A stretch of 34,536 bases of DNA from an uncultured virus (IMG/VR IMGVR_UViG_3300045004_000209) (lineage: Duplodnaviria; Heunggongvirae; Uroviricota; Caudoviricetes). The DNA lies in the IMG/VR virus record IMGVR_UViG_3300045004_000209; one strand, given 5' to 3'. This document shows, piece after piece, positions 17,370-33,074 of the stretch (within the stretch, counting starts at the first letter, position 1; every line of letters begins with the position of its first letter). Below the pieces are notes generated by a model, which had not been told where the DNA came from, ran no database searches, and saw nothing but the letters and a program-made list of their open reading frames with translations. The translations under genes were made by a program, and so were the position numbers.

Positions 17370-17370
17370 A

Positions 17371-18303
17371 ATGGACGACTTTCTTTCCATGATGAGATCC
17401 TGCGGAATGCGGAACGCCACTATGCGTGATGCTTCTGTTGTCATGTGCGCTGCCCAAAAAATGCCTGGACTTTGCAGTCAATTGTCTTTGGGCTATACCC
17501 AGTCTCTGCATCAACTGTTACGATGTTCACCCATAGCATCATGCGCATTTTTCCCAATGTCATTTATCAGGCTTTCTCAGTTACTGCACTCTGATGAATT
17601 TTATGCGTGCAGTCCAATGCCTTGTTGTTCTCTTGATGCAGCGAGAAACTGTGTTGATGCAGACATGTTCTTGGGCATTTTAGACCCTCATAACATAATT
17701 TGCAAGGTTGGCCCAGTCGGATTGTTTAGGGGTATGATGCCTCGGGTTAGGGATGCTATGTCGAGTGTCTTGGTTGCTAAACCTGAGCTTGCAGATCAGG
17801 TTATCAACTTGATGACCGATCACAATTTTGGGATACCAGTATCCCTAGATGACAGGATGAGAATGTCTAAATTCTCATCTTCAAAATCTGAATTTAGGGT
17901 GCACGTTCCAAGGTTTAATATAGATGGAGTGTACACAGGCGTCTCGTCTGAACATGCTTTGCAAAATGCCTTAGACGGCGCTTTTAATAATTCTAATTCA
18001 AAACATTATTATAGGAGAAAACCTAAGGAATTCACTGCTGCTTTTTACATGATGGATCCAGTGATAGCATCCACTGTTGTGCAGGCCATCACTGAAGAGA
18101 GTAAGACCGCTTTCACAAAAATGAATGTTGGAGACCTTGTTGAAACAGGCTCCACAAATGGTTTTTTTGGTGGGAAAAAAGGTAGGGTATGCGCAATCGG
18201 GAGCGGCAAATTGACAGTTCGTTTTTCCGATGGAAAAGAAGTGTCATATGACATGAACAGTCCCATGTTTTACGCGACTATAAAGCCGATTAGGAGGCTA
18301 TGA
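17371..18303 (+). CDS. Hypothetical protein with C-terminal KOW/SH3-like motif
   Basis: MNVGDLVETGSTNGFFGGKKGRVCAIGSGKLTVRFSDG resembles a KOW motif. The N-terminus is Cys/Met-rich. Confidence 0.55.
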   Translation: MDDFLSMMRSCGMRNATMRDASVVMCAAQKMPGLCSQLSLGYTQSLHQLLRCSPIASCAFFPMSFIRLSQLLHSDEFYACSPMPCCSLDAARNCVDADMFLGILDPHNIICKVGPVGLFRGMMPRVRDAMSSVLVAKPELADQVINLMTDHNFGIPVSLDDRMRMSKFSSSKSEFRVHVPRFNIDGVYTGVSSEHALQNALDGAFNNSNSKHYYRRKPKEFTAAFYMMDPVIASTVVQAITEESKTAFTKMNVGDLVETGSTNGFFGGKKGRVCAIGSGKLTVRFSDGKEVSYDMNSPMFYATIKPIRRL

Positions 18304-21300
18304 TTGAGCAAAGAGTCTGTGCCAACCTATTATCTAGATATAGCTGGCATAGCTACGGCTGGAGAAGCCGCCACCTACGCGGCTAGATCAATTGTCAATG
18401 TAAGACCTGGCACATCTATATCGGTGACATTTTGTAGTTTTGCTTCAAGCAATCCTGAGCGATTCTATATTGACATACTTGACAAGTCATCCGACATGTC
18501 TTTGTCTGGTACAAAATACAGTGGTAGATTTTGTTTGGATAAGAATTTTCCATTTGATGTTATTTTCCCAAGCAGATTTTCTAGAATGTCAGCTGATGCT
18601 GTAAGGGATTTAATATCTTACGATCCCAATAAAAACATATTGACAGCGAATCTCGCAGCCATATATTCTAGAGGTTTTTTTGATTTTGATCTCTTGTTGA
18701 GGATGTCTGATCCCGCAGTGTATCCTCTTAAAGTGTCTGAAAAAAAACCTATTTTGCGCGTTGCGGCTAACAAGATTGCAGAATCTCATTTTACATCTGT
18801 GTCTGTGCGTGTTGAGAGACCTTCAAATCCAGACATGCACAGACTAGTTATTTCAGAAGATGAGCGCGTGGAGGTTTTGGGACTTTACGACATCGAAACT
18901 GGTGCTGCAGGAGGCTGCGACGACAGACCATATAGCATGAAGACTGATGGTTTTGTCATACGTTCTGCTGCAGGCGTACAATCTCTTTCTGAAATAAGTT
19001 TTGATGGCTCATACATAGTTCCAGCAAACTTTCCGCTTTTTTATGTGAACGATCATTATAAACCTGAAATATTTAGATCTATCGTAGACTATCCAGGGGC
19101 GAATCCAAAAATACACTCATCCATTCGTCATATTTCTTATAATTTTGCAAATTCTGTTTACTTTTATGATCAGGTGGTTACAAGAAAACTACAGGGTGGT
19201 CGTGGCTATGCAGGCAATCATCCGCTTGTGCACATAGATGACATATTTAGGGGAATAGTTCCACACTCAGATCAAAAGCCCGTTGCCGAATTCAGAAGAG
19301 AATATGTTCCAGGAGAATTGTCTTCCGAGCAGGAGCGCTCTAGGAGGGACGCCAATTTCTTTTTTTACCTGAGTCCGCACACCATGCAGGCATCGTCAGG
19401 CGCTGCCCCCATCATGTCTTTACGACTTCGTCGCGGAGTGCCAAAGGACATCACCTGCACCCTAAAATGGTCACTCAATGGCAGAAAATTGATAAAGAAC
19501 AGGGAAGAGATCAAGATAGAGTGCACTACAGAATGGGGTGAAACATCTGGTGCAAAAAAGAAGAGAGTTAGAACGCTTCATATAAAGAGACATGTTGCTG
19601 ATGGACATCCTTGGTGTAAATATACCACATATGGAAGTGGTGATGCCAATCAGGCTGGCGGATACCCTCTTAAGGCTCTTACTGTCAAAGATTTTTTTGA
19701 CATATTAAGAATGAATGTCTGCGGCACTATAGACGGCTTCAACCCAAATGGGAACGGAGAAGGTGGATTGTTTCCAACTTTTGCAGACATCGATCAGAAA
19801 AATGTTAATCCAGACGATTCAATAGTTGAGATATCTACAAACAAAAACTATTTGGGATGTTATCTTCTGCCCGCTCATCGGCTTACCTTCGGTGAGGAAT
19901 TGCTTGCTGTTGGGGGAGAGGTAAATCAAATATCTTTTACCCACAAATCTGTTGAAATAATGTGTAAAGGCTTGGAAAAGGATGTGTCCATGTCAAACCT
20001 TTGCTGTCTGATGCCACTCAACAGGAAATTGGACTCAGCTGGGGTGCGAGGCGCAATCAAAACCTTCTCTCAGCATTTAGCTGATGGAGATTTTGATGTT
20101 GCAGGCAAGGCATACAGCAGATTTTATATGGACTGGACCATGCGTTCTGCATTGCATATTTTGAGAGAGGGAAGAGATTATTTTGCTGTTACAACTTCAA
20201 GACCTGCCGACCAAGTTCAAACATCTTATGGACATTCTCCTCCGCATGACAGGCGTGAAGCGGGTAAGAGGGCTATCTTGGTAGGAGCTGCTCATCTTGG
20301 TATTTCTGTTGCTATTTTGGACGAGGATTATATCGGTGGAGGTCAATTCTCCTCATCAGCTCCATCATACCTCATGTCTAGAATTGTTGCTGGAGAGCCA
20401 CGATCTGCACCGAGCCAATCTGCCCGAAGCAAGGTATATTCTGTCGATGCGGATGGGTTGACCTTAATGTATATGGACAGTCCAATGTTCAGAACCGTCA
20501 AAACTTCTTTGCTCAACTCTGTTGTGGAAACATCGGTAGATTTAGAAGCATATCCGCATGGTCGTGAGGGATCAATTTGGCAAGTTGTATATACATCGGG
20601 AGCTGGAGATGGTATTCCGTCAAGTCCGCATCTTGATGCGTCATATGTATCAGGGTCTCCTAATTTACTAGATCCTCGTCTGCACGGGTCTGAGTTTGGC
20701 ATCATGGCAGAAGGCGGAGTGCTAGAAGAATCGCTAAGAAAAATATCTGTCCACCCATGCTTCGACCTTCCTAAAGATCTTGCTCCAGATGCATCTATGA
20801 TTCTTAAAGATCTGTTAGATTTTGGATCAGCAACCAAACGATCTTCAGGAAATTATGCCAAGGTTTCATATGAAGAGTCTCCAACTCCATGTGCAGTCTC
20901 TGGCATGGGTAGAAAACATGCATCTGCCAAGTATTATATGAAATCGTCTATGTCATCTCCCAAATCTTCTTACCAAAACAACGAGCATGTTTCTTTTGGC
21001 ATGAAGTTCGGTGATTTTGAAGATGCAGTTTGGGCAGATTTTGGGTTCTTGTCAAAATTGCTTCCATTTTCTATAGTTTCTAGAGTTGAAACTATGCCAT
21101 GGATGGAGTTAGATTTTTATAAATATCATATAGATACTGGCTCTGAAGACATAGATGATCCATATTTAGATACTGGCTCTGAAGACATAGATGATTCAAA
21201 TTTAGGAATTTATGAACCGTATGCAGATCCAATTGATACATACAGTGTTGAAGTTCTGACGCCAGGAAATACGGGATTGAGGGGGTATGCTTTTATAGAT

Positions 21301-22152
21301 AAAAATCCAAGATCTGGGTTAAAAGTAAAATGGCGTAAACGAATACTTGAGCCAAGAACTTTCTCTTTTTATCTCAGAAACAGGCAACTTAGGTCTCTTG
21401 CTGATTTGAGAGATGATATTAACAGAAGGGTCGGTAGATATGGTATTCATGCCACTTCTCTTGTAAAAAATCCTGAATTGAGAGATCAGAGAACTTTGTC
21501 GGAGAGAGAAAAGACGAACATATTCAGGATTGTTGATTTATCTTCAACCGGAGTGGTAGAAGATCCTTATTTTGCAAGATACAGAGCCACAAATAGTGGC
21601 AATGACCCTTATTTTATAGGAGATCCATATATTGGCTCAACTCCAGCCGATAGTAGAAGCATAAAAAACCCTGCAGATTTGGTTGGCGAGATGGATTTGA
21701 CAGATGTCACGCCTGATGCTTCTGGTTCTGTTGTCGTGCACCTGAGGCCGTTCGGTGCAGTCAGGGAGCAGTTGCAGGTTGTAGAGCCCGTCAGTTCTCG
21801 CACCACGATAAGAGATCCTGCCATTTCTGTATCTCCCCCTTCAGGTTGGATGTGGTCTCAGTCAATAGTTGATGGTGTTATTGGCAGGGTTCTCCAACGC
21901 ACATCTTCTGAATCCACAACTGTTCCAGTGCTTCCTTATTTGGGCGGCATCTGGACATGGACGCAACTTAACACGAATGTGTGGGTTCCCAGAACATCTA
22001 ATGGGATGGTTGCCTATCCAGAGCCCCATCCTCAGCAGTCAAATTCAAGCTCAATTAATGTATCATCTGTAGGCTCATCATCTTCTCGTTTTTCTTCATC
22101 TAGTTCTTCAGAAATTGGCTTTCATTCTTCAACACCTTCAGCAGGAGCATGA
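18304..22152 (+). CDS. Large hypothetical protein (1282 aa), probable virion structural protein
   Basis: Long uninterrupted ORF with a TTG start directly after the upstream TGA and a Ser-rich C-terminal tail. The structural role is inferred from size and position only. Confidence 0.65.
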   Translation: MSKESVPTYYLDIAGIATAGEAATYAARSIVNVRPGTSISVTFCSFASSNPERFYIDILDKSSDMSLSGTKYSGRFCLDKNFPFDVIFPSRFSRMSADAVRDLISYDPNKNILTANLAAIYSRGFFDFDLLLRMSDPAVYPLKVSEKKPILRVAANKIAESHFTSVSVRVERPSNPDMHRLVISEDERVEVLGLYDIETGAAGGCDDRPYSMKTDGFVIRSAAGVQSLSEISFDGSYIVPANFPLFYVNDHYKPEIFRSIVDYPGANPKIHSSIRHISYNFANSVYFYDQVVTRKLQGGRGYAGNHPLVHIDDIFRGIVPHSDQKPVAEFRREYVPGELSSEQERSRRDANFFFYLSPHTMQASSGAAPIMSLRLRRGVPKDITCTLKWSLNGRKLIKNREEIKIECTTEWGETSGAKKKRVRTLHIKRHVADGHPWCKYTTYGSGDANQAGGYPLKALTVKDFFDILRMNVCGTIDGFNPNGNGEGGLFPTFADIDQKNVNPDDSIVEISTNKNYLGCYLLPAHRLTFGEELLAVGGEVNQISFTHKSVEIMCKGLEKDVSMSNLCCLMPLNRKLDSAGVRGAIKTFSQHLADGDFDVAGKAYSRFYMDWTMRSALHILREGRDYFAVTTSRPADQVQTSYGHSPPHDRREAGKRAILVGAAHLGISVAILDEDYIGGGQFSSSAPSYLMSRIVAGEPRSAPSQSARSKVYSVDADGLTLMYMDSPMFRTVKTSLLNSVVETSVDLEAYPHGREGSIWQVVYTSGAGDGIPSSPHLDASYVSGSPNLLDPRLHGSEFGIMAEGGVLEESLRKISVHPCFDLPKDLAPDASMILKDLLDFGSATKRSSGNYAKVSYEESPTPCAVSGMGRKHASAKYYMKSSMSSPKSSYQNNEHVSFGMKFGDFEDAVWADFGFLSKLLPFSIVSRVETMPWMELDFYKYHIDTGSEDIDDPYLDTGSEDIDDSNLGIYEPYADPIDTYSVEVLTPGNTGLRGYAFIDKNPRSGLKVKWRKRILEPRTFSFYLRNRQLRSLADLRDDINRRVGRYGIHATSLVKNPELRDQRTLSEREKTNIFRIVDLSSTGVVEDPYFARYRATNSGNDPYFIGDPYIGSTPADSRSIKNPADLVGEMDLTDVTPDASGSVVVHLRPFGAVREQLQVVEPVSSRTTIRDPAISVSPPSGWMWSQSIVDGVIGRVLQRTSSESTTVPVLPYLGGIWTWTQLNTNVWVPRTSNGMVAYPEPHPQQSNSSSINVSSVGSSSSRFSSSSSSEIGFHSSTPSAGA
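21131..21205 (+). repeat. 36-bp tandem duplication in frame (DTGSEDIDD x2)
   Basis: TAGATACTGGCTCTGAAGACATAGATGAT (29 nt identical) occurs at 21131 and 21167. Confidence 0.9.
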
Positions 22153-24069
22153 ATGTCAGATAATAAAAGACCTAGAGATTTGCCAGGAGTCATTGACTTG
22201 ATGCAGTTTACACCTGCTTTAAGGTCTAAACTATCTGACATTCAAAATCCTTCTATGGGCGCAATCGAAGACTCGGTTGGTTTAAAAGGATTGGCTTCTA
22301 ACTCAGACACCTTCCGTAGTTATCAGTCATTTTTGGCATCTAATTCTGGCGGTGGAATATTTCAGTCACTTCAGGTGGCTTTCGGTGGCGTTGTCGATGG
22401 AGAAAACCCGCAGCCAGATGAGTTGCCAAACACATTTTTAGATCCCGCATCTAATGTGTTCTCCACAGTAGAATTTAGCGTTGTGAATCATGAATCAATA
22501 ATACTTTTGGTTCGCGTTCTAGGTAACGATGGCAGATTCTATCCAAGGATAGGAGACGACCCAGATGCTATAATTCTATCGCTGAAGGCAGAATACGACA
22601 ATGGCGCGGAAACATTTTTTTCTGCACCGGTGCAGCCGGGTACGGCAACTGCAAATGCTAATTTTGTTCAGTCTGAAGATGTTGACCTTACAGATGGTGG
22701 CACAGAAGAAAGCCAATTCAAGCCACTTATTTTTATAGTCCCTTTGCGTTCTATAATTACCTTTGTAACTATACAGAGTGCGTCTTTTGGTCTTTCACTT
22801 TCTTTGCGAGTGCGGAGGAGCCCAGGAGAGTTGGATGAATTTGGGTTTTTGGCAGTGAATAGGAGCAGCAATATTTTCAGCATGAATGCAAGCAGAGTCG
22901 GGAAAAACTTTGGTCTTGTTTTTGATCAGGTTGGCGCATGGGATATTATTATATCTCCAGAAGCAACTTGCAAACAGGAGCAAAGTTTAGCCATTTCTAA
23001 TTTTACCTATTCGGGGAGAATATATTCTCGCACGCCAATAGATGTTGATGAGAACTTTGTGGTTGGCGTTGGAAATCCTGTTGTTAATTCTGACAATGAC
23101 ATCACATCATTTGACACTTCTTTTTTGCCACCTGAGGTTAGAAATGGCATATCCATCGTGCCAGTTTCTGGATATCCACGAGTTTGGGTTTTGCGCATAC
23201 AGCCAGCAGTCAGAGAGCATTTAATAGCACAACGTAGGATCGCTCCGCAGAATTCCCTTCAGGGTTGCTATGTAGATCTTCCCATATATGCAAGAGGTTC
23301 GCGCAGCTTGGCTGAAGGCAGGGGAAGTATAAGAATTTTTGCAGAGGTAAATTGCGTATTCGACTACACATTATGTGATTTTTATTGGAATCTTGGAACA
23401 CCATTGGCAAATGTGCCAGCCGTGGTGATAGAGAATCAACTAGAAATATCTTTTGAGGAGTTGATCGATTGCCAAACAGATGCTTCGCTTGACAGTTCAG
23501 GCAACATAGTCGCCACCTCTTTCTTCTTCGTTTCAGTGCGAAACATTCCAGCACTCGACACTGGGACTGCAATGCTTCTGATCAAAACTCCTGCACCTCC
23601 GCCATTTCTTGCACGGATATACAAGCCAAGTGCAGATGTTGCGGCAAGACTTAAGAGACTTCCTACCACCCAAAGTGCTCCGCCTTGGGTTTTTTCATGC
23701 CCCGCACTCACTCCACTTGAGATAAACACTGTCAACAAACTAAAACTTTATGTAGGTGGTTCGACATCTAACCCAATTACCCAACCCTTAGATATAGCAA
23801 ATAAATCTGCATCGGAATCAAGTGTACTTGTCGTACAGCCAAGGTTCAACTTCCCTCCAGGCGACGAAATCTCTCCAGATTCGCCAACAGAAAAAGTTAT
23901 TGCGAGCATGGGGTTCACATTTAGGAATTGGAGAAACAGTAATAATCTTCTTTTTGTAGAAACATTGTTGTTGGCAGCAGAATTTATATATCCGACAAAT
24001 GCATCTGTTGATCTGAAAATTCCACTTGTGGCAAAATTCTATTACAATGAAGACAGGAGGGTGATGTGA
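22153..24069 (+). CDS. Hypothetical protein (638 aa), probably beta-rich structural protein
   Basis: Long ORF abutting both neighbours, rich in V/I/F/P/S/N. No recognised family. Confidence 0.65.
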   Translation: MSDNKRPRDLPGVIDLMQFTPALRSKLSDIQNPSMGAIEDSVGLKGLASNSDTFRSYQSFLASNSGGGIFQSLQVAFGGVVDGENPQPDELPNTFLDPASNVFSTVEFSVVNHESIILLVRVLGNDGRFYPRIGDDPDAIILSLKAEYDNGAETFFSAPVQPGTATANANFVQSEDVDLTDGGTEESQFKPLIFIVPLRSIITFVTIQSASFGLSLSLRVRRSPGELDEFGFLAVNRSSNIFSMNASRVGKNFGLVFDQVGAWDIIISPEATCKQEQSLAISNFTYSGRIYSRTPIDVDENFVVGVGNPVVNSDNDITSFDTSFLPPEVRNGISIVPVSGYPRVWVLRIQPAVREHLIAQRRIAPQNSLQGCYVDLPIYARGSRSLAEGRGSIRIFAEVNCVFDYTLCDFYWNLGTPLANVPAVVIENQLEISFEELIDCQTDASLDSSGNIVATSFFFVSVRNIPALDTGTAMLLIKTPAPPPFLARIYKPSADVAARLKRLPTTQSAPPWVFSCPALTPLEINTVNKLKLYVGGSTSNPITQPLDIANKSASESSVLVVQPRFNFPPGDEISPDSPTEKVIASMGFTFRNWRNSNNLLFVETLLLAAEFIYPTNASVDLKIPLVAKFYYNEDRRVM

Positions 24070-27000
24070 CCATACGCATACAGCAGGCAGTCTGGTGGCA
24101 GGCAGCTGCCTACAGTCCCGCATCTTCGGGTGATGATTTTGATCCTACGCAGGCAGGCGGAATGTCTTCTTTGCGACTTGTTGTAGATGCAGGTACTGGG
24201 GTTGATGCTAGGTATTTTACATCTGACTCTGCTGGGGTGCTTGCAGGCAAGGCGTGCAGCGCACTCAGGTCTTTCACCCTGAACACAATAGACTCAAACA
24301 ACGATGGTCAAAATGATACTGTTGTAGATCAGCCAACCTTTGGTGTGAGACTTGGAGACCCATCTCTCGTCGATGGAAGGGTAATATTCAATCCAAATGC
24401 TCAAGAGGCTCTTGCTATATTTGGCGAGCCCAGACTCGTCATCAATTTGGAAGATTTTGTGGCCGCAAGGGTGCCGCTGTCTTTTATGTTGATGGCCGTA
24501 TACAATTCAGGATTGTCTCTATCTTGTTCTGACAGATCTCTGCCGAATGCATGGTTTAAGCACAGCGACATCCCAAGTGGAATTGTTGATCCAGTAAGTT
24601 CGGATGAACTTCGAGATGCGATGGAGCCTAAGCCGCAGACAACTTCTGATGGCTTGAACGCTGGCTTTTACGTGAAGTTTGATAGGCAGGCAGAAATAAC
24701 TCAAATTGGTTGCTGTGGTGTTTCAAGTGGTGGTGGTGGTGGTGGTGGTGGTGGTTCGTCATCAAGTTCTCAGGCTCCACCATCAGAATGCTCTAGTGGC
24801 CCGACATTGAGGTCTTACCAGCCTGCGCCTAACAAGACAAGAATTTGGGCTGTGCGCTCTGGTCTGCGCACATCTATAAATCCAAAGTTGTTAGGTTCTT
24901 TAGGAAATCCAGAATGGTCATGTTTTGGCCCAACTCCGCAAGAGTTGGTATATGCTGAATTTGATAATGAAGAAAAACTAGATACTAATCTAGATACATC
25001 AGTAATAACTTGGCATCATGCCGGATTCCTTGTTCTTGAGGATAATTACAACAGAATGTTTCCAATAGACTTCGCAGGGTCGTCCGAAAATAAATCGCCA
25101 TTCCTTGGCAGCATGTATGACACATTGCACAAATTGCCTGTTGATGTGGTTGACATAGCATGGGATGATCGTGGTTGGCTGTGGGCACTGTGCACAGGAC
25201 CCAGCCGTACCGAAGGAACCTCATCAGACTCTCCAGAGTCTACCGTTGACGGCATATACAGAGTGCTTCCCGGCGGATGGTCGTACCACATAGCTGATAC
25301 ATTCTCTTGGGGCGGCGGCACAACTCCCGACTCCGAGGTAACTGCCAAATTGGTTGCTAGTAAAGTTGGCAAGTACAAGAAGGTTGCCTGCAGTGGCAAC
25401 AGTGAAGGTCACTATACATTCTATCTGACCATCGATGGTAAGGTGGAGTATGTTCACTCTGCTTCCGTATCTCCAGTGTCTCCTCCTGCCGCTGTCTTTT
25501 CTTCTGACGCGGTCGTCATTGACATTTCAGCTGGAGAGTCACATGCATGCTGTGTCTTTGCAGACGGGAGTCTGCTTGCATGGGCAATGCAATCCGATTC
25601 GAATTCTGGCGCCAATCACAATCACATAGAAGGCCCCAACTCTTCAACCGGAACCTTCACAAAAGTCGCGTGCCGAGGCAAGCATACAGTGGCTTTGCGG
25701 TATGACGGTAAAATTTTTAGTTGGCTAGATGATGGAACTGTGCCCACCCCTGATGCGGCTGAAGGCGAGACCGTGGTGGACATCGGTTGTGGATCTGGTC
25801 ATGTTGCAGCCCTTTTTAACGATTCTGAATCAGGATCTAACAGGGTTGAGATCACGGGGACGTATGAAGACGGAAGTACCCCTAGAAATTTTTCAGACTG
25901 TGACAAATTTGCTTGCGGTTTAAACTGCACCATTGTTTGGCAGGACAGCACATTAATTTTTGATGGACCTGCAGATGATTATTTATCCAATCTGCCTGAT
26001 GTGACAACTGTCAAGCAGATCAGCATCGGAGACCTTCATGCAGTTCTTGTTACAGAGGATGGCTCCCTATGGTCGTGGGGACACTCGACATATGGAGTTG
26101 ACCATGGTGTCCCGCTAACATATAACAACAGCCCCCTATCTTTTGATGGTCAGATCGCAAAGTTTGAAAGCGTTTCATGCGGCATAAGGCACACATGCGT
26201 CATAACAGATGGCACATTCTATGAACCAAAATATTCTCCCGCCGTTGTTGCGTACAGGTCAAAAATAGAGATTGCATCAGGCATACTAATACCGGACGAG
26301 CCCGCAGCCGTCATGGTGAAATCTTCTCGAGACGGATCTCTTTCATCGGTTCGCTCGCACTATGATGGAACCACAATCTTGATTGGGCGCTCGGAATATA
26401 ATGGCAATCCCTTCGATTTCTCTGAGAAGAAAGATCTAAAAATATATGACGATGCGAACAAGACAATAAGAGTTCTTTCTGCAAATTGGAGACCTCTCAA
26501 GTCAATCGCTTCCGTGGAAGCAATTGAACTGCCGAAAACTTGCGGAGGTCAAATTCCTCACCCTTTAAGTTCTTCTCACAAAATTCTTCCTGTCACCCAT
26601 GATTTTTCTGAAAGCGATTGGACACAAACAGATGTTGACGGACTGACGGTTCTACAACTTCCTGAGTTTTCAGGTGTCATTCATGTAAATGAAGAATGGG
26701 AATCGGACCTTGCTAATTTTCCCCAAAAGATAATTGATTCCGCAGCCTTACAGCACTTCAGTCCAAATTACATAACGGCTAGCGATTATTTTGACATGGG
26801 GGTAATCCTATATAATAAATACAAATCTTTCCACACCGTAGCATCTTGCTTTTCTGATTCAGACTTTGTTCCAGGTAGCAGCGTGTTGCTGCCGATCAGT
26901 ACACAGTTTTTCTTTAATTATACAGGTGAAACGGACGTCTCTAATACTTGGGCAAAATTTCCTTCTATCATGATAGGTCAGTCTGCAAACAGTGATGTTT

Positions 27001-30000
27001 ACAAGTTTGAAAATAATAATCAATATTGTGGTTTTAATATTAGCACTATAGGACGTGAGTATCTTAGGTCACCATTTTTAAATAATAATGAAGAGATACC
27101 ATTTCTCCACGGTGGATGGCGTATGCGATCTGCTGCCGTCAAAATTCAGTACTTAAAATCTTCTCTACAACAAGAGACAGGTGGTGTTTTGATGCCGATT
27201 CTACACAACAACGACTCCGGCCAAACACAAGGTGTGACGAACGTGGTGCAAGTCGCGGCGGGCGGGTACCACACAGTTGCGGTGAAAGGGGACGGCACCG
27301 TCGTTGCGTGGGGTCGGAACGACGACGGCCAAGCGACTGTGCCAGCAGGTCTGACTGAGGTGACGCAAGTCGCGGCGGGCGGGTACCACACAGTTGCGGT
27401 GAAGGCGGACGGCACCGTCGTCGCGTGGGGGTACAACGGCTACGGCCAAACGAATGTGCCACAAGGACTGACTGGCGTGGCGCAAGTCGCGGCGGGCCTT
27501 CACCACACAGTTGCCCTAAAGTGGGACGGCACCGTCGTCGGGTGGGGGTCCAACTGGGCTGGCCAAACGAATGTGCCACCAAATCTGACTGACGTGGAGC
27601 AAGTCGCGGCGGGCGGGTACCACACAGTTGCGGTGAAGTTCGACGGCACCGTCGTCGCGTGGGGGAAAAACGGCAACGGCCAAGCGACTGTGCCAGCAGG
27701 TCTGACGGGCGTGGAGCAGGTCGCGGCGGGCGGGAGACACACAGTTGCGCTCAAGTCGGATGGCACCGTCGTCGCGTGGGGGTCCAACTACTACGGCCAA
27801 ACGAATGTGCCACAAGGTCTGACGGGCGTGACGCAAGTCGCGGCGGGCGGGTACCACACAGTTGCGGTGAAAGGGGACGGCACCGTCGTTGCGTGGGGTC
27901 GGAACGACGACGGCCAAGCGACTGTGCCAGCAGGTCTGACTGACGTGGAGCAAGTCGCGGCGGGCGAGTTACACACAGTTGCCCTAAAGTGGGACGGCAC
28001 CGTGGTCGCGTGGGGGGCGAACACAAGAAACGAAGATTTGGTTACATCACCCGTAGAATTTCAATTTATCTCAGATGGTGAAAGTATATATACAAATAGA
28101 GGAATTCTTGAAGGCAATAGTGGAAGAGACTACACAAATTATGCATTAGCTCAGTGTGGGTCTTGCGTTGTATTGATAGCAGGTAATAGAATTTGGAATG
28201 ACATTTGGCGATTTGGAGATACGAGTTTTACTGATTATCAGAATCAGATACCCTCATGTACCAATGGAAAGTATTTTATTGCAGCTGCCGCTAGAAATAA
28301 TACATCTCCCAATAACCTATTTCAGACTAAATATAAAGAAGCAAAAATGATAACTCAAACATTTAATTATGGTAATAATTGCGGTACGTATCCTTTCCAC
28401 GGTGTGGCAGGGTGCGATCTTGTCGCCACACAAGAAATATCAGATGGGAAGGTACATTCTTTTATAGCGTTAGGAAGTTCATATTTCCTTAATCAACAAT
28501 TAACATCAAAAATTTTTATAATTGAGTGTAGAATTCACGAAAAAGATGATGGGGATACAAACGTTTACGCGCGATCTGCTTATCAAATCACCGCCGAAAC
28601 AAATAGAAGTTCAGCACCTACAGGATTTGCTGCATCTTCTTGTGGTGTTATTGTGGGGATTTTCCAAAAAAAACCTCTTTCTTATCCTGGTACTAATAAA
28701 GGATTTATTGTTTATAGAAAAATAAATTCACAAATTAGCGAAGATCCTGATGATCTCAATCTAGTAAACCAGAATGGGGACATCCAAGAAATAACTACTA
28801 ACGGTAGCTTTAGATTATATCCTGTAGACATTTGTATTGCTGATGGGCAAAATCCGATGTGTGTTTTCCTTGTTGCGAGATCTGCGGTGGAGGTGAATCC
28901 TTTCGACCCTAGCCCTCTTGTTTATTATTCATTGTGTATGTTTACAGGCAGCTCAAGAATTTTTAACAACATTATCAGTCTTTTCAATAACAGAAATACG
29001 ATCCTAGAAGAAGATCAAACTCAATCGGAAGGTGGTTTGTATAGTCAAGATCGTTCAAGACTGTTCGGATGTGCTTTTGAAACGGAAGATGATTCTACTT
29101 CTATCAAATATGTTTGTTTACGTTGGAAAGACAACTTCCGTGTATATAAGAATGAAAATACAGCCAGTTGGACCGAACTTTTGAGATTACTCGTTGATGA
29201 TTCAAATCCCGCTTGGTTTGGATTCTGCAGGTCTGCAAACAATAAACTTTTGCTAGTTAAGTCATCTGGTAGTTTAGTAAATTTTTGGCTTTTGCAAGAC
29301 GGTCAATTGATTGATATACATTACAAACACTCTTTGCCAATTTCTTCTAAAACTATAGGTATTTCTCATTTCAAAAACAAGTTGTTTATTGTAAAAGAGT
29401 CTGCTAATTATGCCGATCCTACGGGAGAAACTCCTAACTTTACACTTGAAATCGGCAATGTGGAACAAACTGAATATAAGAATGGGGAGTTGAGATACAG
29501 CATGCTTGTTCACATGCATCCAACATGTAGTAGAACAATCATAAACGATGACCCAAATGAAGAACGCATCCCGTTTCTTTATGTTAACAACCAAAATTCA
29601 GAGCTTCGCTACTCTGAGAGCACCACCAATGATAATTTGGGCAGCTCTATGCCAAACGAAAAATATGGAGTGATATGCTCTGCACCTGCCGACTTCGGAT
29701 CAGCAGGTGTGAGGTATTTCTTCGAGAACACATCATCTGCATTCAGGGTTTATAAGTTGTCTTCTTCTGGTTTTGAATGCGTCACTAGAAATACTGGAAT
29801 AACGCAATTCAAGAATTTCGGCCACGGCGTTCTCAACGATTCTTACTCCTTGTCTAGATACCGTCCACTTCTTGAGATGCCTAAAAATGCCCCATGGGGT
29901 GAGATGTGGTCTCAAATCTCTGCAAACACAAATAGACTGAACACGACCACCAATAGATTCGTTGCGGTTGGTGCAAATGTTCATGTATTTTTGGAAAACT

Positions 30001-33000
30001 CAGATGATGTAAGCTCTAGTTTTGCGTCGAAAAACATTCCAATCAACCCGCCAATAACGTATCGCACATACATGAACGTTCGTTCTGCAATCGTGAAGGC
30101 CAATGGCGATTCTGTTTCTGCTTTGCGTAGCGAGTCTTCCCCTGGAGCTCTTCCATACCAGAGGGGCATGATCAGGTACTCCATCAATTCGACAATCACT
30201 GTTCCTTTTGGATCGGCTGAGCCCATCTCCATCAAGCCATCTACGTCAAGTTTGGACAGGCACAGTTGGATGTGGTGGGGTAAGTGGGTCTGGCAACTTA
30301 TTAATTCTGGACAAGTTCCCTCCATCAGTGACCCCATGTCACTTCTTGGCATCGAATCATGGTGGCACAGCACCGGAGGCGACCAAAGTGAAGTCGGAGC
30401 TTCTGACAGAAGCGACTTCTTGGATGGCTATGTAACCGCAGCCTCCTCTGCCTCTGCGCTCGTGGTGGGTAATTCCCGCTGCATCTCCTCTGAAGACGAT
30501 GTGACGATGCAGCTGAAGGTTTACAGATATAATGCAACCGGGCCAACTAATGGAACTTGGACATTGGCCACAACTGTCAACATCAATTCTGTGCAAGAGA
30601 TGGGAAACGACAATTTTGGGACAAAATATCACCCACACAGCTACTTGCCTCAGCGTCTTGTTCTCGCCGTGTCTGATGATGCCAACATAATATGCGTTGC
30701 AGGGCACACGTGGGGGTCGGGATCGATACCTGGAGTTCCCAAAAATACCATGGTAACCATACTGAAGCTGACGAACGGACAGTACAATGGGGTAACGAGC
30801 ATTGTGCCACCTGAAGATATTGACAATTATTTCGCCACCAAGATGGAGATTCAAGACAATCCAGGTGGCGGATACAGGCTCAACATCTTGTGCTCAACAG
30901 ACCCTGTTGCTGCAGGTCAGAACTTTTTTAGCTACCCTGCTTCCAACAAAACCCATTCTTACATCCTAGATACCCAAGGTACGCCCGCGAAGGTTGCTGA
31001 GTGCACTGATTTGCTGCCGCCTGCAGAAATTGGCTTCACCAACAGCGGTGCAGCCAATCTCAACCACTGGGTTGCAACGCCATCTCCTGCATACAACGGA
31101 AACCAGACGGCTACATGGGCTGGCAGCAGCCTTGTGATAACGACTCTCAACAGGATCATGTCTCTTCAGAGCAGCAGATTTGGATGGATGGTTCAGTCGC
31201 ACACCGATAGACCATTCAAGTTTTCAGATTGCAAAGTTCTTTCATCTGATTTCAACACCTACCAATCTCAATTCTCCTGCCCTCCAGATCAGTCGTTCTG
31301 CTCAAACTATACAGATGTGCCAAAGTTTCCATCGCCTGCTGCTGGAAACCAGATGTCCGATGGTCGTGTTCGGGCATCATTCTTCATACCGCAGACTGTT
31401 GGCTCGGAAAATGATTCAGGCTTCTACCAGGTTGATAATGCCAATTCAACGCAATCTGGCTGGTTCACTGCTGTAGGCAGCGACGCACAGACCCTCACTC
31501 TCCCCCACTTGGCCATCGGTAGAGCCCTAAACTCCACCATAAAGGATCCTCAACTGTCATCAGCAGATTTTGATCCTGGGGTGCAGGGCAGGATATTTAA
31601 GGTCATCATCGAAGGTAGCCAGGCCGGAGAATTTGTAGGCATGGCCGGAGACTTTGGCCTGGTCGTGAGGAGACCGCTGTTTGCATCTGTAAATGGCGTA
31701 TCCCGTCTTGATTGGCCATTCTCGGGCGCACTCACGGTTCTTCCCAAGCATTTCATAAGGTTTTCCGATGAGGCATCGGCGATAAGGAATACATCTGCCA
31801 ACTCTCTTGATATAATTGATGCTGGCGTCATCGCCCCGACATTCAACTCTGCGAATATTATTGTCTTGAAAGACGGTCTAGACAGAGCCGATCCAGGTGG
31901 TGTTGCGGTTGCCTACCTTGCTCCCAGCCAGTGGGCTGAGAAGAGTAAAAATGTCGTGCCTAGTGGTCAACTTGTGTCACTCAGGATATCCAACAGTCAG
32001 GTACAGCAGAGATCCGCAACAACTACCGGCATCTTTCCTGAAACTGGCTCTCAACGAGTTTCGACCACATCTCAATCATTTGGCATAGCATCGCCCATGG
32101 CAATAACCGTGGGCGGAGCTTCTGCCTGTGGCGCAGGAGCATTTGACATATCTAAGCCATGCCGCAGCCCTATCGCCCCGCTCGAGGGTCGGGCCTTCGG
32201 ATCTGGCTCTAGCCCCTGGATGGTGGTGGTCGAAAGGCACACTCTTGATTCCACCTACTTCTCCTACCAAGGTATTGATTTTGGCATACGAGGCATATCG
32301 GTAACCGATGCATCCCAATTGCGTATGGCTGAGCCGTTCTCCGTGTCGCCCCAGTCCCCCTTTGATCCTCTTGGGCACATGGGAAGGATGGGATGGTGCG
32401 CCAACCGGTCATACAAGGTTGCAGGCTGGTCTGTAGCCACAAAAGATGTGATTTTCGGTCACCTGCGCGACATTCTCGACCCCAAATTTGGAAATGTGTA
32501 CAATCGAGACATGATATGCCTAGCCAGTGCAGATGGGCTTGGCGACCCCGATGGCATAACTAGTTATGTATGGGCCTATCCAACCCCAGTTTCGGGGGTC
32601 ACAACCACGAAGAAGTGTGTATGCGAGTCGGACCCATACGGGGGCATATTGTGGCTCAAGCGCCTCATGTCTCTTCCGTACACGCCCAAGACATCGCACC
32701 TTGCCCTGCGTTGCCTCAACGGAACTGGAACCGTTCCAGACCAACAGGCGACCATGTACAGCCGCTTTGAAGCTGGTGCAAGCCCTCTCAAGGCTCTCGT
32801 TTTTATTCTGACTGCAGATATTCCGACTGCTAACGAAGGGATCACGGGTGCTAACATGGCCTCAACTGACGCACATATTAGAAAATCTTGGGCAGAAAGT
32901 GTAAATAATAACCTCAAATCTGCCGAAATATTAACTTCAGAAGGCGGCGTGCACTTTGTTGATCTTGTCAAGCGACCTTTGGAAGATACTTACAGGAGGG

Positions 33001-33074
33001 CTTGTGAGATCCTCGCAGAAGTGTCAGGAGGGAGTTACATCTCTCTCGGAAGACCTCTCTCGGAAAGCAGGTGA
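24066..33074 (+). CDS. Giant (3002 aa) multidomain protein with two RCC1/BLIP-II-like beta-propellers and a possible C-terminal vWA-like segment; candidate tail/receptor-binding protein
   Basis: GTG start in a GTGA overlap, a Gly/Ser linker, degenerate RCC1 blades at about 25370-26220, near-perfect RCC1 repeats at 27210-28022, and C-terminal LVFILTADIP...ILAEVSGGSYISL. Confidence 0.75.
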   Translation: MTIRIQQAVWWQAAAYSPASSGDDFDPTQAGGMSSLRLVVDAGTGVDARYFTSDSAGVLAGKACSALRSFTLNTIDSNNDGQNDTVVDQPTFGVRLGDPSLVDGRVIFNPNAQEALAIFGEPRLVINLEDFVAARVPLSFMLMAVYNSGLSLSCSDRSLPNAWFKHSDIPSGIVDPVSSDELRDAMEPKPQTTSDGLNAGFYVKFDRQAEITQIGCCGVSSGGGGGGGGGSSSSSQAPPSECSSGPTLRSYQPAPNKTRIWAVRSGLRTSINPKLLGSLGNPEWSCFGPTPQELVYAEFDNEEKLDTNLDTSVITWHHAGFLVLEDNYNRMFPIDFAGSSENKSPFLGSMYDTLHKLPVDVVDIAWDDRGWLWALCTGPSRTEGTSSDSPESTVDGIYRVLPGGWSYHIADTFSWGGGTTPDSEVTAKLVASKVGKYKKVACSGNSEGHYTFYLTIDGKVEYVHSASVSPVSPPAAVFSSDAVVIDISAGESHACCVFADGSLLAWAMQSDSNSGANHNHIEGPNSSTGTFTKVACRGKHTVALRYDGKIFSWLDDGTVPTPDAAEGETVVDIGCGSGHVAALFNDSESGSNRVEITGTYEDGSTPRNFSDCDKFACGLNCTIVWQDSTLIFDGPADDYLSNLPDVTTVKQISIGDLHAVLVTEDGSLWSWGHSTYGVDHGVPLTYNNSPLSFDGQIAKFESVSCGIRHTCVITDGTFYEPKYSPAVVAYRSKIEIASGILIPDEPAAVMVKSSRDGSLSSVRSHYDGTTILIGRSEYNGNPFDFSEKKDLKIYDDANKTIRVLSANWRPLKSIASVEAIELPKTCGGQIPHPLSSSHKILPVTHDFSESDWTQTDVDGLTVLQLPEFSGVIHVNEEWESDLANFPQKIIDSAALQHFSPNYITASDYFDMGVILYNKYKSFHTVASCFSDSDFVPGSSVLLPISTQFFFNYTGETDVSNTWAKFPSIMIGQSANSDVYKFENNNQYCGFNISTIGREYLRSPFLNNNEEIPFLHGGWRMRSAAVKIQYLKSSLQQETGGVLMPILHNNDSGQTQGVTNVVQVAAGGYHTVAVKGDGTVVAWGRNDDGQATVPAGLTEVTQVAAGGYHTVAVKADGTVVAWGYNGYGQTNVPQGLTGVAQVAAGLHHTVALKWDGTVVGWGSNWAGQTNVPPNLTDVEQVAAGGYHTVAVKFDGTVVAWGKNGNGQATVPAGLTGVEQVAAGGRHTVALKSDGTVVAWGSNYYGQTNVPQGLTGVTQVAAGGYHTVAVKGDGTVVAWGRNDDGQATVPAGLTDVEQVAAGELHTVALKWDGTVVAWGANTRNEDLVTSPVEFQFISDGESIYTNRGILEGNSGRDYTNYALAQCGSCVVLIAGNRIWNDIWRFGDTSFTDYQNQIPSCTNGKYFIAAAARNNTSPNNLFQTKYKEAKMITQTFNYGNNCGTYPFHGVAGCDLVATQEISDGKVHSFIALGSSYFLNQQLTSKIFIIECRIHEKDDGDTNVYARSAYQITAETNRSSAPTGFAASSCGVIVGIFQKKPLSYPGTNKGFIVYRKINSQISEDPDDLNLVNQNGDIQEITTNGSFRLYPVDICIADGQNPMCVFLVARSAVEVNPFDPSPLVYYSLCMFTGSSRIFNNIISLFNNRNTILEEDQTQSEGGLYSQDRSRLFGCAFETEDDSTSIKYVCLRWKDNFRVYKNENTASWTELLRLLVDDSNPAWFGFCRSANNKLLLVKSSGSLVNFWLLQDGQLIDIHYKHSLPISSKTIGISHFKNKLFIVKESANYADPTGETPNFTLEIGNVEQTEYKNGELRYSMLVHMHPTCSRTIINDDPNEERIPFLYVNNQNSELRYSESTTNDNLGSSMPNEKYGVICSAPADFGSAGVRYFFENTSSAFRVYKLSSSGFECVTRNTGITQFKNFGHGVLNDSYSLSRYRPLLEMPKNAPWGEMWSQISANTNRLNTTTNRFVAVGANVHVFLENSDDVSSSFASKNIPINPPITYRTYMNVRSAIVKANGDSVSALRSESSPGALPYQRGMIRYSINSTITVPFGSAEPISIKPSTSSLDRHSWMWWGKWVWQLINSGQVPSISDPMSLLGIESWWHSTGGDQSEVGASDRSDFLDGYVTAASSASALVVGNSRCISSEDDVTMQLKVYRYNATGPTNGTWTLATTVNINSVQEMGNDNFGTKYHPHSYLPQRLVLAVSDDANIICVAGHTWGSGSIPGVPKNTMVTILKLTNGQYNGVTSIVPPEDIDNYFATKMEIQDNPGGGYRLNILCSTDPVAAGQNFFSYPASNKTHSYILDTQGTPAKVAECTDLLPPAEIGFTNSGAANLNHWVATPSPAYNGNQTATWAGSSLVITTLNRIMSLQSSRFGWMVQSHTDRPFKFSDCKVLSSDFNTYQSQFSCPPDQSFCSNYTDVPKFPSPAAGNQMSDGRVRASFFIPQTVGSENDSGFYQVDNANSTQSGWFTAVGSDAQTLTLPHLAIGRALNSTIKDPQLSSADFDPGVQGRIFKVIIEGSQAGEFVGMAGDFGLVVRRPLFASVNGVSRLDWPFSGALTVLPKHFIRFSDEASAIRNTSANSLDIIDAGVIAPTFNSANIIVLKDGLDRADPGGVAVAYLAPSQWAEKSKNVVPSGQLVSLRISNSQVQQRSATTTGIFPETGSQRVSTTSQSFGIASPMAITVGGASACGAGAFDISKPCRSPIAPLEGRAFGSGSSPWMVVVERHTLDSTYFSYQGIDFGIRGISVTDASQLRMAEPFSVSPQSPFDPLGHMGRMGWCANRSYKVAGWSVATKDVIFGHLRDILDPKFGNVYNRDMICLASADGLGDPDGITSYVWAYPTPVSGVTTTKKCVCESDPYGGILWLKRLMSLPYTPKTSHLALRCLNGTGTVPDQQATMYSRFEAGASPLKALVFILTADIPTANEGITGANMASTDAHIRKSWAESVNNNLKSAEILTSEGGVHFVDLVKRPLEDTYRRACEILAEVSGGSYISLGRPLSESR
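24729..24755 (+). repeat. (GGT)9 microsatellite encoding a poly-Gly linker
   Basis: Nine perfect GGT codons within SSGGGGGGGGGSSSSS. Confidence 0.95.
25371..26220 (+). repeat. Seven degenerate RCC1-like blades (protein-level repeat)
   Basis: YKKVACS..., VIDISAGESHACCVFADGSLLAW, FTKVACRGKHTVALRYDGKIFSW, VVDIGCGSGHVAALF, CDKFACGLNCTIVW, VKQISIGDLHAVLVTEDGSLWSWG and FESVSCGIRHTCVITDG. Confidence 0.75.
27210..28022 (+). repeat. Seven-unit 117-bp (39 aa) tandem repeat encoding an RCC1/BLIP-II-type propeller
   Basis: CA[AG]GTCGCGGCGGGC recurs at 27249, 27366, 27483, 27600, 27717, 27834 and 27951. Consensus QVAAGxxHTVA[VL]KxDGTVVAWGxNxxGQxxVPxGLTxVx. Unit 1 is 78/117 GC (67%). Confidence 0.97.

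Follow-up and report, generated by a model that had tools for sequence, protein, structure and literature searches.

A GC-rich propeller cassette inserted in a giant phage protein, with probably recombining blades and a putative variable binding face

BLIP-II of Streptomyces exfoliatus (1jtd_B, 3qhy_B) is a seven-bladed propeller with three-stranded blades (PMC6121496). We observed a repeat cassette predicted to have the same plan in the window, the whole 34,536-nt stretch of DNA analysed here, which comes from an uncultured virus (Caudoviricetes; IMG/VR IMGVR_UViG_3300045004_000209). The two domains are alike in their seven blades, their units of ~39-40 residues and the three strands per blade, and the target contacts of BLIP-II fall in unit columns that are hypervariable in the window's domain. 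BLIP-II is secreted as a standalone protein of 28 kDa and its blades have diverged, whereas the window's domain is an insert whose median blade identity is 74% (range 67-83%; 21 unit pairs). The likeness implies no beta-lactamase link for the phage domain.

Beta-propellers are classed as highly repetitive when their median blade identity exceeds 60% over consecutive blades (Pereira and Lupas 2022; PMC9218822), and the cassette, at 74%, lies above this threshold. According to that survey, RCC1/BLIPII propellers make up 10% of the highly repetitive set and are mostly bacterial, with few viral members, and blade number can differ between paralogues that are otherwise 100% identical. The survey places most highly repetitive propellers at protein termini, whereas the cassette occupies aa 1049-1318 of a 3002-aa protein. 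The cassette also differs in being compositionally foreign and in belonging to a unit family that unrelated phages have in common in DNA.

The WD repeats of the fungal nwd/het-d/het-e genes are reported to be near-identical, to evolve in concert within and between loci and to vary in number, with diversifying selection on a handful of positions at the interaction surface of the propeller (Paoletti, Saupe and Clave 2007, PMC1805685; Dyrka et al. 2014, PMC4986451). The evolutionary mode of this family appears to be that of the phage cassette. The fungal repeats are WD40 blades of intracellular NLR immune receptors, with RIP as an extra source of mutation, whereas the phage blades are of the RCC1/BLIP-II type, and any exchange between loci would need to pass from one genome to another. 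A Pfam scan found no NTPase domain of an NLR/STAND architecture in the 3002-aa protein; the likeness to nwd is one of mechanism, not of family.

Point mutation, module swapping and retroelement mutagenesis are the known ways in which phages vary the proteins that recognise their hosts. The cassette suggests a further route, in which a whole binding domain of near-identical blades would be inserted into a giant protein and recombination among the blades would alter their number and shuffle loop variants on a BLIP-II-like face. Diversity-generating retroelements (DGRs) of the Bordetella phage BPP-1 Mtd type likewise place hypervariable residues on an otherwise constant scaffold, in a protein presumed to bind the host. 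The analogy extends only to the outcome: in the window, the cassette is accompanied by no reverse transcriptase (RT), template repeat or adenine-specific changes, and both the fold and the position in the protein differ.

RCC1 proteins of cultured phages were detected in 15 of 50,697 phage records (E <= 1e-10), and RCC1 phages include Marinobacter phage PS6, Synechococcus phages S-SRM01 and BUCT-ZZ01, Xanthomonas phage Xoo-sp13, Salicola phage SCTP-2 and Brevibacillus phage Jenst. These proteins (PHROGs 16766, 7220 and 4219) are at most 43% identical to the cassette, have no DNA similarity to it and bear no annotation other than 'regulator of chromosome condensation'. The literature searched contained no description of repeat-driven diversification of RCC1 propellers in phages; in one match from the prasinovirus literature, 'RCC1' denotes culture-collection strain numbers.

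The cassette is carried by a giant ORF with a GTG start (24066-33074; 3002 aa), which, like all features given below, lies on the + strand. Nine orthologues are 41-67% identical to the giant protein and, at 2704-2812 aa, 190-298 aa shorter. In the alignment consensus the orthologues are conserved over ~1040 aa at the N-terminus and ~1200 aa at the C-terminus, with a variable centre between them. We found no IMG/VR relatives of the giant protein with aa 1320-1819 or the orthologue alignment as query, and phage-record DNA gave no match to the cassette (blastn) or to positions 10000-24000 (megablast). The window contains no tRNA genes.

The giant protein has a second, native RCC1-like propeller region of ordinary composition at about 25356-26210 (about aa 431-715; limits approximate). 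RCC1/UVR8/RPGR matches fell at aa 484-552, 629-683 and 657-715, and the orthologue profile matched UVR8/HERC2/BLIP-II at profile positions 431-709. All orthologues have this region, and all nine carry PF13540; the native propeller is separate from the GC-rich cassette. At the left junction of the cassette (27195-27212) the native '...GVLMPILHN' is followed by the cassette's 'NDSGQ'. At the right junction (28017-28061) the cassette's '...VVAWGA' gives way to the native 'NTRNEDLVTSPVEF', which aligns with the orthologue 'xxSPVVADFRLDG'. Each of the five orthologues inspected at the junction has sequence aligning with the window's post-cassette part and no BLIP-II-type repeat there; 'GVLMPILH[N/G]' directly precedes the post-cassette sequence in three of them, and the other two are too diverged for the motif. 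Since the inspected orthologues cross the junction without it, the cassette is a lineage-specific in-frame domain insertion. A partial relative (P0132; 96.5% identical) carries the last cassette unit.

The cassette spans 27210-28019 and consists of seven units of the RCC1_2/BLIP-II beta-propeller type. Position 27210 is in frame with the ORF and all seven units start with Asn, which we number column 1. Unit 1 (27210-27317) has 108 nt, with its 9-nt gap best placed after codon 5, and units 2-7 have 117 nt each (starts 27318, 27435, 27552, 27669, 27786 and 27903), in agreement with the original prediction of seven in-register, Asn-starting units, the first shortened by 9 nt. Tandem Repeats Finder reported 27226-28016 (period 117, 6.8 copies, 81% matches, score 976), and the units are 77-93% identical at the DNA level. 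The 110-nt identity that had been noticed between units 1 and 6 proved to be an exact direct repeat of 111 nt, whose copies lie 585 nt (five units) apart. The first copy (27248-27358) joins the 3' part of unit 1 to the 5' part of unit 2, and the second (27833-27943) the 3' part of unit 6 to the 5' part of unit 7. In-register comparison at the remaining five offsets gave longest exact runs of 17-44 nt. All five sub-blocks said to recur among units were present; the unit numbers given for them are correct in their own blade register, which starts at the Gln of column 17, and are one below those of the Asn register. The framework had been described as almost invariant even at synonymous sites. 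This was somewhat overstated: of the 23 columns with an invariant residue, 15 use a single codon in all units and eight use two; the mean pairwise synonymous difference over the 23 columns was 0.19.

The composition of the cassette, which had been described as GC-rich, is foreign to the phage. GC reached 0.640 and 0.655 in the two 400-nt cassette bins compared to 0.370 and 0.367 in the adjoining bins, and GC3 was 0.73 compared to 0.21-0.45 in neighbouring 300-nt stretches of the same ORF. On composition and parsimony, the cassette was probably gained by this lineage rather than lost from the others. The proposal of a donor pool in a high-GC host was not supported: the conserved nucleotide pattern of the unit had no match among 185,579 bacterial and archaeal species genomes, and among the 80 closest bacterial loci the top unit-HMM score was 58 bits, compared to 92-105 bits for the phage loci.

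We assessed the fold of the cassette by profile search and structure prediction. Pfam matches were strong for RCC1_2 (PF13540; E 2.7e-83, 272 bits, cut-off 22, 9 stretches) and for WD40_RLD (PF25390; E 3e-76, 257.5 bits, cut-off 150), and the top PDB sequence match was 1jtd_B (E 2.2e-45). The AlphaFold model of the cassette had a pLDDT of 96-99 over model residues 31-280, with 21 strands (7 x 3), and a pLDDT below 50 in the native flanks. Foldseek returned the BLIP-II chains as top matches, 1jtd_B with E 2e-30, TM 0.84 and 41% identity. All four approaches agree with the BLIP-II/RCC1 propeller originally proposed, and the cassette is thus predicted to form a closed, seven-bladed, three-stranded propeller of the BLIP-II type.

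Six codon columns per unit are hypervariable: 2, 3, 22, 23, 30 and 39. By unit, columns 2-3 read (DS), DD, GY, WA, GN, YY, DD; columns 22-23 read GY, GY, LH, GY, GR, GY, EL; column 30 reads G, A, W, F, S, G, W; and column 39 reads R, Y, S, K, S, R, A. Every residue list of the original prediction was thereby reproduced in the Asn register, and Tyr, Trp, Asp, Arg and Gly are over-represented in the columns. We compared these columns with the beta-lactamase contact residues listed for BLIP-II in PMC10817188. Contacts were placed through the 1jtd_B alignment (offset 38; residue identities all agree), and all 21 placeable contact residues fell in columns 39, 1, 2, 3 (with one insertion after 3), 7, 22 and 23. 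Five of the six hypervariable columns (2, 3, 22, 23 and 39) are thus contact columns and lie on one face, the face that BLIP-II uses for its target. Column 30 is not a contact column and would lie on the other face by strand topology. The cassette is a clean natural case of propeller domain insertion, with a constant scaffold and about five variable positions per blade, and as such may interest binder designers.

We scanned 76 viral loci and six pattern loci with the unit HMM. The 117-nt unit family is also present in four other viral contigs and one metagenome contig, mostly as standalone genes: strong matches were restricted to L001, L078, L080, L081 and L082 (best scores 96.7-105.6 bits). 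The last of these, a 1108-nt contig, was the single hit of the metagenome pattern scan and has 940 nt identical to L081. The window has nothing else in common with the unit-bearing contigs in DNA or protein. Repeats in the related contigs have a GC of 0.56-0.61 in genomes of 0.44-0.50. The unit genes of L001, L078 and L080 encode 214-344 aa, have their own repeated upstream and terminator-like elements, and sit among genes without structural annotation. In four lake runs the summed word depth of cassette-like unitigs was 5-30x that of the flanks, which suggests that many related units are present in the community. At the nucleotide level, the GC-rich 117-nt blade family is common to unrelated lake phages, which makes the rate of array change and the movement of blades between genomes testable questions.

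The mosaic structure of the units, which had been described as patchwork sharing in conflicting patterns, was evident in a four-gamete test on units 2-7, where 57 of 91 pairs of informative biallelic sites showed all four combinations. We compared the window's protein with P0134, in which all 1042 pre-cassette residues and the last 1941 residues are identical and the assembled cassette has eight units instead of seven. The extra unit combines the 5' part of unit 2 with the 3' part of unit 1, apart from a single E-to-D change, and matches the product expected from an unequal crossover in the stretch common to units 1 and 2. L078 and L001 differ at eight positions over 6728 nt (99.88% identity), all of them within 81 nt of one unit. 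Seven lie in a 27-nt stretch that, by codon-table reading, agrees with sister units 4 and 7. The assembled L080 gene has five units compared to seven in its L001 orthologue. Framework identity among units was 0.90 within the window and 0.83-0.85 to the other loci. Recombination or gene conversion among blades, as originally proposed, is the best reading of the 111-nt repeat, the eight-unit variant, the mismatch cluster between L078 and L001 and the four-gamete conflicts.

Overall, our data suggest that the cassette is probably a horizontally gained and inserted propeller whose blades recombine and whose loop face is under diversifying selection, with no dedicated mutator. A complete, self-folding propeller of the BLIP-II/RCC1 type would have been gained horizontally and inserted in frame where the variable centre begins, in a giant protein that already had a native RCC1-like propeller. 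Unequal crossing-over, slippage and short-tract gene conversion would then add or remove units and copy patches between them; a DNA identity of 77-93% would make the units substrates for ordinary homologous recombination. The expected outcome is a homogeneous framework with a mosaic pattern. Loop residues at columns 2, 3, 22, 23 and 39 are replaced far faster than synonymous sites change. The loop residues may thus be under diversifying selection on a ligand-binding surface, most likely a host-contacting one.

It is also conceivable, although unlikely, that the propeller was recently amplified or homogenised by conversion, and that its 'hypervariable' columns are merely tolerant loops with no adaptive diversification. 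Highly repetitive RCC1/BLIP-II propellers are common (10% of 10,480 such domains; PMC9218822). The window's hypervariable columns are those marked 'x' in the consensus of 51 bacterial homologues, which suggests that structural tolerance accounts for part of the variability pattern, and the columns likewise lack conservation in highly repetitive bacterial loci such as L083, L086 and L091. We observed a pairwise pN of 0.56 in the six hypervariable columns compared to a pS of 0.19 and a pN of 0 in the 23 framework columns, a contrast that comes from seven non-independent units and in which gene conversion alone lowers the framework pS. A neutral column should nevertheless not outpace the synonymous rate, and here pN was about threefold the framework pS. 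Changes between the orthologous genes of L001 and L080 were concentrated in the same columns, with the amino acid altered at 18 of 36 hypervariable codons compared to 16 of 144 other codons (P = 1.2e-6, Fisher). The enrichment of these columns in Tyr, Trp, Asp, Arg and Gly, on a known binding face, also argues for selection on the loops. At the strain level, other parts of the protein vary more than the cassette: P0132 differed at 2 of 32 visible cassette residues compared to 20 of ~100 residues directly downstream.

The target of the variable face bears on a further alternative, that the propeller is no virion adhesin but acts inside the cell or after secretion, binding or inhibiting a host protein, and that its face tracks a host defence or envelope enzyme. 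We consider this quite improbable. BLIP-II, its closest solved relative, is a tight-binding enzyme inhibitor, and the units of L001, L078 and L080 form small standalone genes among structurally unannotated ones. The window's domain is instead embedded in a 3002-aa protein whose family is most variable at the centre. Conserved ends with a variable centre are the usual layout of host-recognition proteins. A propeller of 41% identity occurs in an uncultured-phage protein that bears the name 'Tail tubular protein Gp11', the repeats are matched by PHROG 13857 'tail protein', and most bacterial homologues are extracellular proteins of several domains, with Ig-like, PxKF or choice-of-anchor domains. 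The virion adhesin originally proposed is a candidate role, hinted at indirectly by the variable centre, PHROG 13857 and the Gp11-named protein. Outside its RCC1 parts the giant protein had no convincing match in Pfam, PHROGs, PDB or Atlas, and a PDB profile search with the orthologue alignment returned RCC1-type matches only. Among five segments searched against PHROGs, one gave a weak match to 'major head protein' (17.9 bits, E 0.002), which we rejected as too weak to identify the protein. An AlphaFold model of aa 1-440 (pLDDT 31.5) was discarded.

Diversifying selection on a recombining, inserted propeller leaves room for a broader and rather doubtful proposal, that the units form a community pool, with arrays of them carried by unrelated lake phages both as standalone genes and as the insert in the giant protein. 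Co-infecting phages would exchange or copy blades by homologous recombination, with concerted evolution between viral genomes. Either GC-biased conversion or selection for recombination homology would maintain the high GC and the frozen synonymous codons in genomes of 44-50% GC. Such a pool would supply ready-made loop variants for host-binding faces and would make the phages a parallel to the fungal nwd repertoire, with no dedicated enzyme. The high GC would then not stem from recent import out of a GC-rich bacterium.

The original prediction had gone further and named a candidate diversification system, and a dedicated system was not supported. A proposed search for an RT or recombinase gave no RT, recombinase or integrase match among the ORFs of the 34.5-kb window scanned with Pfam and PHROG profiles. 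The unit HMM found no copy outside 27210-28016 in the window, and silent-cassette antigenic variation was rejected. At most 42% of mismatches fell on A of any putative template in every ordered unit pair. Because no RT, template copy or adenine bias was found, we read the pattern as passive concerted evolution plus diversifying selection, with no dedicated system; both processes have precedents in highly repetitive RCC1/BLIP-II propellers and in the WD repeats of fungal NLRs. Rewriting of the loops by a diversity-generating retroelement, or by programmed exchange with silent donor copies in phage or host, is accordingly very unlikely. It would fit the whole-codon changes at fixed positions, the conflicting mosaic and the foreign composition; the window amounts to 34.5 kb, whereas the genome measures at least 158 kb, and the depth of cassette-like unitigs points to many related units in the community. 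Against it, the variable region is a mid-protein propeller and not a C-terminal C-type-lectin or Ig target, and the gained unit and the 27-nt sister-unit patch are products of plain homologous recombination.

We compared the locus with Logan contigs of four lake runs, in which uncovered bins carry no meaning. Inside the cassette the run sequences consisted only of 56-155-nt unitigs, and Pereira and Lupas warn of assembly errors in such repeats (PMC9218822). With unitigs this short and assembly-only data, the differences between seven and eight units and between five (L080) and seven (L001), as well as the L078/L001 patch, could be assembly errors. The left junction is bridged with 0 differences by contigs of runs X1 (26300-27277) and X7 (26597-27279), and the right junction by contigs of X1 (27974-28900), X7 (27994-28900) and X10 (27953-28088). 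An assembly chimera, in which a GC-rich stretch from another organism was misjoined into the phage contig, would explain the sharp composition steps at both cassette ends and the break-up of short-read assemblies at the repeat, but is extremely unlikely given these bridging contigs, a cassette exactly in frame within a 3002-aa open frame, and calls of the protein or its parts on other contigs (P0121 and P0131 on two each, P0134 and P0132 on one each).

The cassette is a real, well-defined feature of a giant open reading frame (ORF; 24066-33074, + strand, 3002 aa). Tandem Repeats Finder placed the repeat array at 27226-28016 (period 117, 6.8 copies, 81% matches). We observed the predicted seven in-register units (27210-28019), one of 108 nt followed by six of 117 nt, in the ORF frame and each starting with Asn. 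The 9-nt deletion of the first unit was recovered as a gap placed after codon 5 of unit 1, and the residue lists for the variable positions were all reproduced column by column. Identity between units was 77-93% for DNA, with a median of 74% for protein. The description of synonymous sites as frozen was mildly overstated: a single codon was used in 15 of 23 invariant-residue columns, and the mean pairwise synonymous difference in these columns was 0.19. GC content was 0.64-0.66 in the cassette vs 0.37 in adjoining bins, and GC3 was 0.73 vs 0.21-0.45 in neighbouring stretches of the same ORF. The cassette is best explained as a BLIP-II-type binding domain that the phage would have acquired and inserted in frame into the giant protein, where it would evolve by passive concerted evolution among units, with diversifying selection probably acting on the propeller's putative binding face.

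The BLIP-II/RCC1 propeller identity was borne out by both sequence and structure. Pfam matches were to RCC1_2 (E 2.7e-83) and an RCC1-like domain (E 3e-76), and the best solved relative by sequence was BLIP-II (PDB chain 1jtd_B, E 2.2e-45). An AlphaFold model, built with an alignment of 51 homologues, had pLDDT values of 96-99 over model residues 31-280 and comprised seven blades of three strands each; BLIP-II, too, is described as having seven blades, each three-stranded (PMC6121496). The native flanks were disordered in this model while the cassette was well modelled, indicating that the cassette folds independently. The top Foldseek matches were BLIP-II chains (E 2e-30, TM 0.84), then UVR8 and RCC1-like domains.

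The variable surface was mapped by homology. BLIP-II residues contacting TEM-1 and Bla-1, as listed in PMC10817188, were placed on the cassette-1jtd_B alignment with a numbering offset of 38, at which the residue identities all agreed. Counting the Asn as column 1, all 21 listed contacts inside the alignment fell in columns 39, 1, 2, 3 (plus one insertion after 3), 7, 22 and 23. The hypervariable columns of the cassette are 2, 3, 22, 23, 30 and 39, so that five of these six columns map to the face with which BLIP-II binds its targets. Column 30, in the hairpin joining strands 2 and 3, does not correspond to a BLIP-II contact, and strand topology places it on the reverse face. Frequent residues at the hypervariable columns are Gly, Tyr, Asp, Ser, Arg and Trp; pairwise pN there was 0.56 vs a framework pS of 0.19. 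The same columns are also unconserved across the whole bacterial family and in other highly repetitive bacterial examples, so structural tolerance explains part of the variability.

A search with residues 1320-3002 returned nine orthologues of the giant protein (2704-2812 aa, 41-67% identity). In the three closest, '...GVLMPILH(N/G)' joins directly to sequence aligning with 'TRNEDLVTSPVEF...' of the window (five orthologues read), and a BLIP-II-type repeat was absent from this place in all five. Removing the cassette leaves 3002 - 270 = 2732 aa, inside the length range of the orthologues. These comparisons indicate that the cassette is an inserted domain. P0132, a partial relative with 96.5% identity, has the cassette end; the insertion therefore predates the split from P0132 and postdates the 67% split. 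The consensus of the orthologue alignment shows ~1040 conserved N-terminal residues, and the cassette sits at their end, where the most variable stretch of these proteins starts. All orthologues also have, at ~residues 431-715, an RCC1-like propeller that is native, diverged and of ordinary composition. A chimera of this single assembly was ruled out: among four lake-water runs compared as Logan contigs, X1 and X7 had contigs crossing the left junction, and X1, X7 and X10 had contigs crossing the right one. A (GTG)x9.7 run (24727-24755) codes for a Gly/Ser linker that follows the conserved N-terminal part (~220 aa), and the linker varies in length and composition across orthologues.

The window appears to be a piece of a large phage genome, and the giant protein was also called on a 158,536-base contig. 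Every plausible gene is on the + strand, and the genes are closely packed. Pfam and PHROG matches identified a UvrD-type helicase, a clamp loader, a sliding-clamp-like protein, a dNMP kinase and a phage metallopeptidase; searches of phage records found no DNA similarity to catalogued phages. Outside its RCC1 parts, the giant protein had only a weak 17.9-bit PHROG match in PHROG, Atlas and PDB profile searches, and indirect hints are compatible with a tail role. One Foldseek match, 'Tail tubular protein Gp11' of an uncultured tailed phage (BFVD A0A6J5Q1M1, 477 aa), has a propeller that shares 41% identity with the cassette model (E 1.4e-30) and is the sole match whose name connects such propellers with a component of the tail. 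A sugar-nucleotide and glycosyltransferase block (1159-5832; Pfam/PHROG matches) encodes an MptE-like/'sialyltransferase' PHROG protein, a CMP-sugar cytidylyltransferase, NeuB (nonulosonic acid synthase, E 5e-54), a HAD phosphatase and a GT1-GT2 glycosyltransferase fusion of 641 aa. With an NAD-dependent epimerase gene at 14770-15717, these genes suggest that the phage may make or alter a sialic-acid-like sugar. A 1282-aa ORF (18304-22152) had no family match and contains a 36-nt tandem repeat (21131-21205, 2.1 copies, 94% matches).

Recombination or gene conversion among blades, as originally proposed, was supported by patterns within the cassette and by comparisons of near-identical genomes. 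Units 1 and 6 share an exact repeat of 111 nt (27248-27358 = 27833-27943), which spans a unit boundary; at the five remaining unit offsets, exact in-register runs were 17-44 nt at their longest. The conflicting sharing of sub-blocks is truly mosaic, since, of 91 informative site pairs (units 2-7), 57 showed all four combinations. Comparing near-identical sequences gave three lines of evidence for what is probably plain recombination. P0134, encoded on a different contig, matches the window protein exactly over all 1042 pre-cassette residues and the last 1941, and has eight units. In its extra unit, the 5' part is that of unit 2 and the 3' part that of unit 1, apart from a single E-to-D change; unequal crossover in the stretch common to units 1 and 2 would be expected to give this product. 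Two other viral contigs, L078 and L001, were 99.88% identical over 6728 nt, and all eight differences were inside 81 nt of one unit; seven were in a 27-nt stretch with the sequence of sister units 4 and 7, which is what conversion over a short tract would leave. Orthologous genes of L001 and a third viral contig, L080, were 97.4% identical in the DNA of the non-repeat tail, and residue-changing codons were concentrated in hypervariable positions (18/36 vs 16/144 elsewhere; P = 1.2e-6, Fisher). The L080 gene (5791-6432, reverse strand, 214 aa) has five units and the L001 gene (5875-6771, 298 aa) seven, reflecting either a real change in blade number or a collapsed assembly. Framework-site identity was 0.90 among window units vs 0.83-0.85 to units of other loci, which fits local homogenisation or amplification. 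The variant evidence all comes from short-read assemblies, the four runs yielding unitigs of only 56-155 nt inside the cassette, and Pereira and Lupas describe assemblies of near-identical blades as unreliable (PMC9218822). Between the window protein and P0132, 20 of 59 differences were in the ~100 residues past the cassette (28090-28400, aa 1342-1444), and the visible cassette part had fewer (2 in 32 residues). These ~100 residues are thus a hot spot of variation between strains that lies beyond the repeat.

On the evidence of the 34.5 kb of the window, the cassette is not a dedicated diversification system, contrary to the candidate reading of the original prediction. Among the scanned ORFs (34.5 kb of at least 158 kb), we found no reverse transcriptase, integrase or recombinase family, and a unit HMM found no template or silent unit copy elsewhere in these 34.5 kb. 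Mismatches on adenines were at most 42% for every ordered pair of units. A diversity-generating retroelement is thus unsupported in these 34.5 kb and was rejected.

As a member of the RCC1_2/BLIP-II propellers, the cassette domain qualifies as highly repetitive in the sense of Pereira and Lupas, whose criterion is 60% and whose set is 10% RCC1/BLIPII, a group with a few viral members (PMC9218822). Its mode of evolution appears to match that of fungal nwd/het-d/het-e WD repeats, for which PMC1805685 and PMC4986451 describe concerted evolution, variable repeat number and diversifying selection at a few surface positions per repeat; the fungal proteins are of the NLR type, whereas the cassette protein is not an NLR. 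RCC1 propellers occurred in 15 of 50,697 phage records, at no more than 43% identity and with no assigned function. The literature searched contained no account of cassette-type repeat-driven diversification in phage RCC1 propellers. The clean in-frame insertion and the foreign composition of the inserted propeller are new, as are the apparent recombination footprints between near-identical genomes and a unit family common at the DNA level to unrelated phages, for which no bacterial counterpart was found.

By protein sequence, the cassette falls in a very large bacterial family (>5320 relatives at E <= 1e-20 among 8000 candidates). The 120 relatives listed were 42-62% identical, and names and domain content suggest extracellular proteins built of several domains. 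The DNA did not share this bacterial affiliation: 20 fixed bases of the frozen codons, used as a pattern, matched none of 185,579 species genomes, and matched four further viral contigs and one metagenome contig. Full-length units of these loci scored 92-105 bits with the unit HMM, and the best of the 80 most similar bacterial loci scored 58 bits, on a 7-kb Planctomycetota MAG contig. The units of the other viral loci form small standalone genes (214-344 aa) with GC of 0.56-0.61 amid DNA of 0.44-0.50, and we found no further DNA or protein similarity between these loci and the window. Summed word depth of contigs on the cassette (27170-28040) was 5-30x the flank depth in X1, X7, X10 and X12 (in X1, up to 1898 vs 55). 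Loose ends of these contigs led to other unit variants and to gene starts resembling those of a viral contig (L081) and the 1108-nt metagenome contig (L082). In these communities, related units therefore far outnumber this phage and are carried by more abundant genomes of the same lakes. The proposed donor pool in a high-GC host was supported neither by the pattern search of the species genomes nor by the unit-HMM scores of the 80 bacterial loci, and no donor was identified.

The closest bacterial-labelled relative, on the 7-kb Planctomycetota-binned contig L083 (1501-2346), has a signal peptide and six to seven 39-aa units that closely resemble one another, are 66% identical to the cassette and vary at the same columns; this contig could itself be viral. 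In L001, the standalone propeller genes are preceded by a repeated ~184-nt element (5130-5313, 5796-5979 and 8030-8213), which translates to a recurring leader, 'IYIHRG..IGIPTTLSD.QNNIDLRKRTQ'. A repeated 78-nt hairpin-plus-T-run element follows propeller genes at 6797-6874 and 7979-8056. By their layout, the L001 propeller genes resemble a set of small, putatively independently transcribed cassettes.
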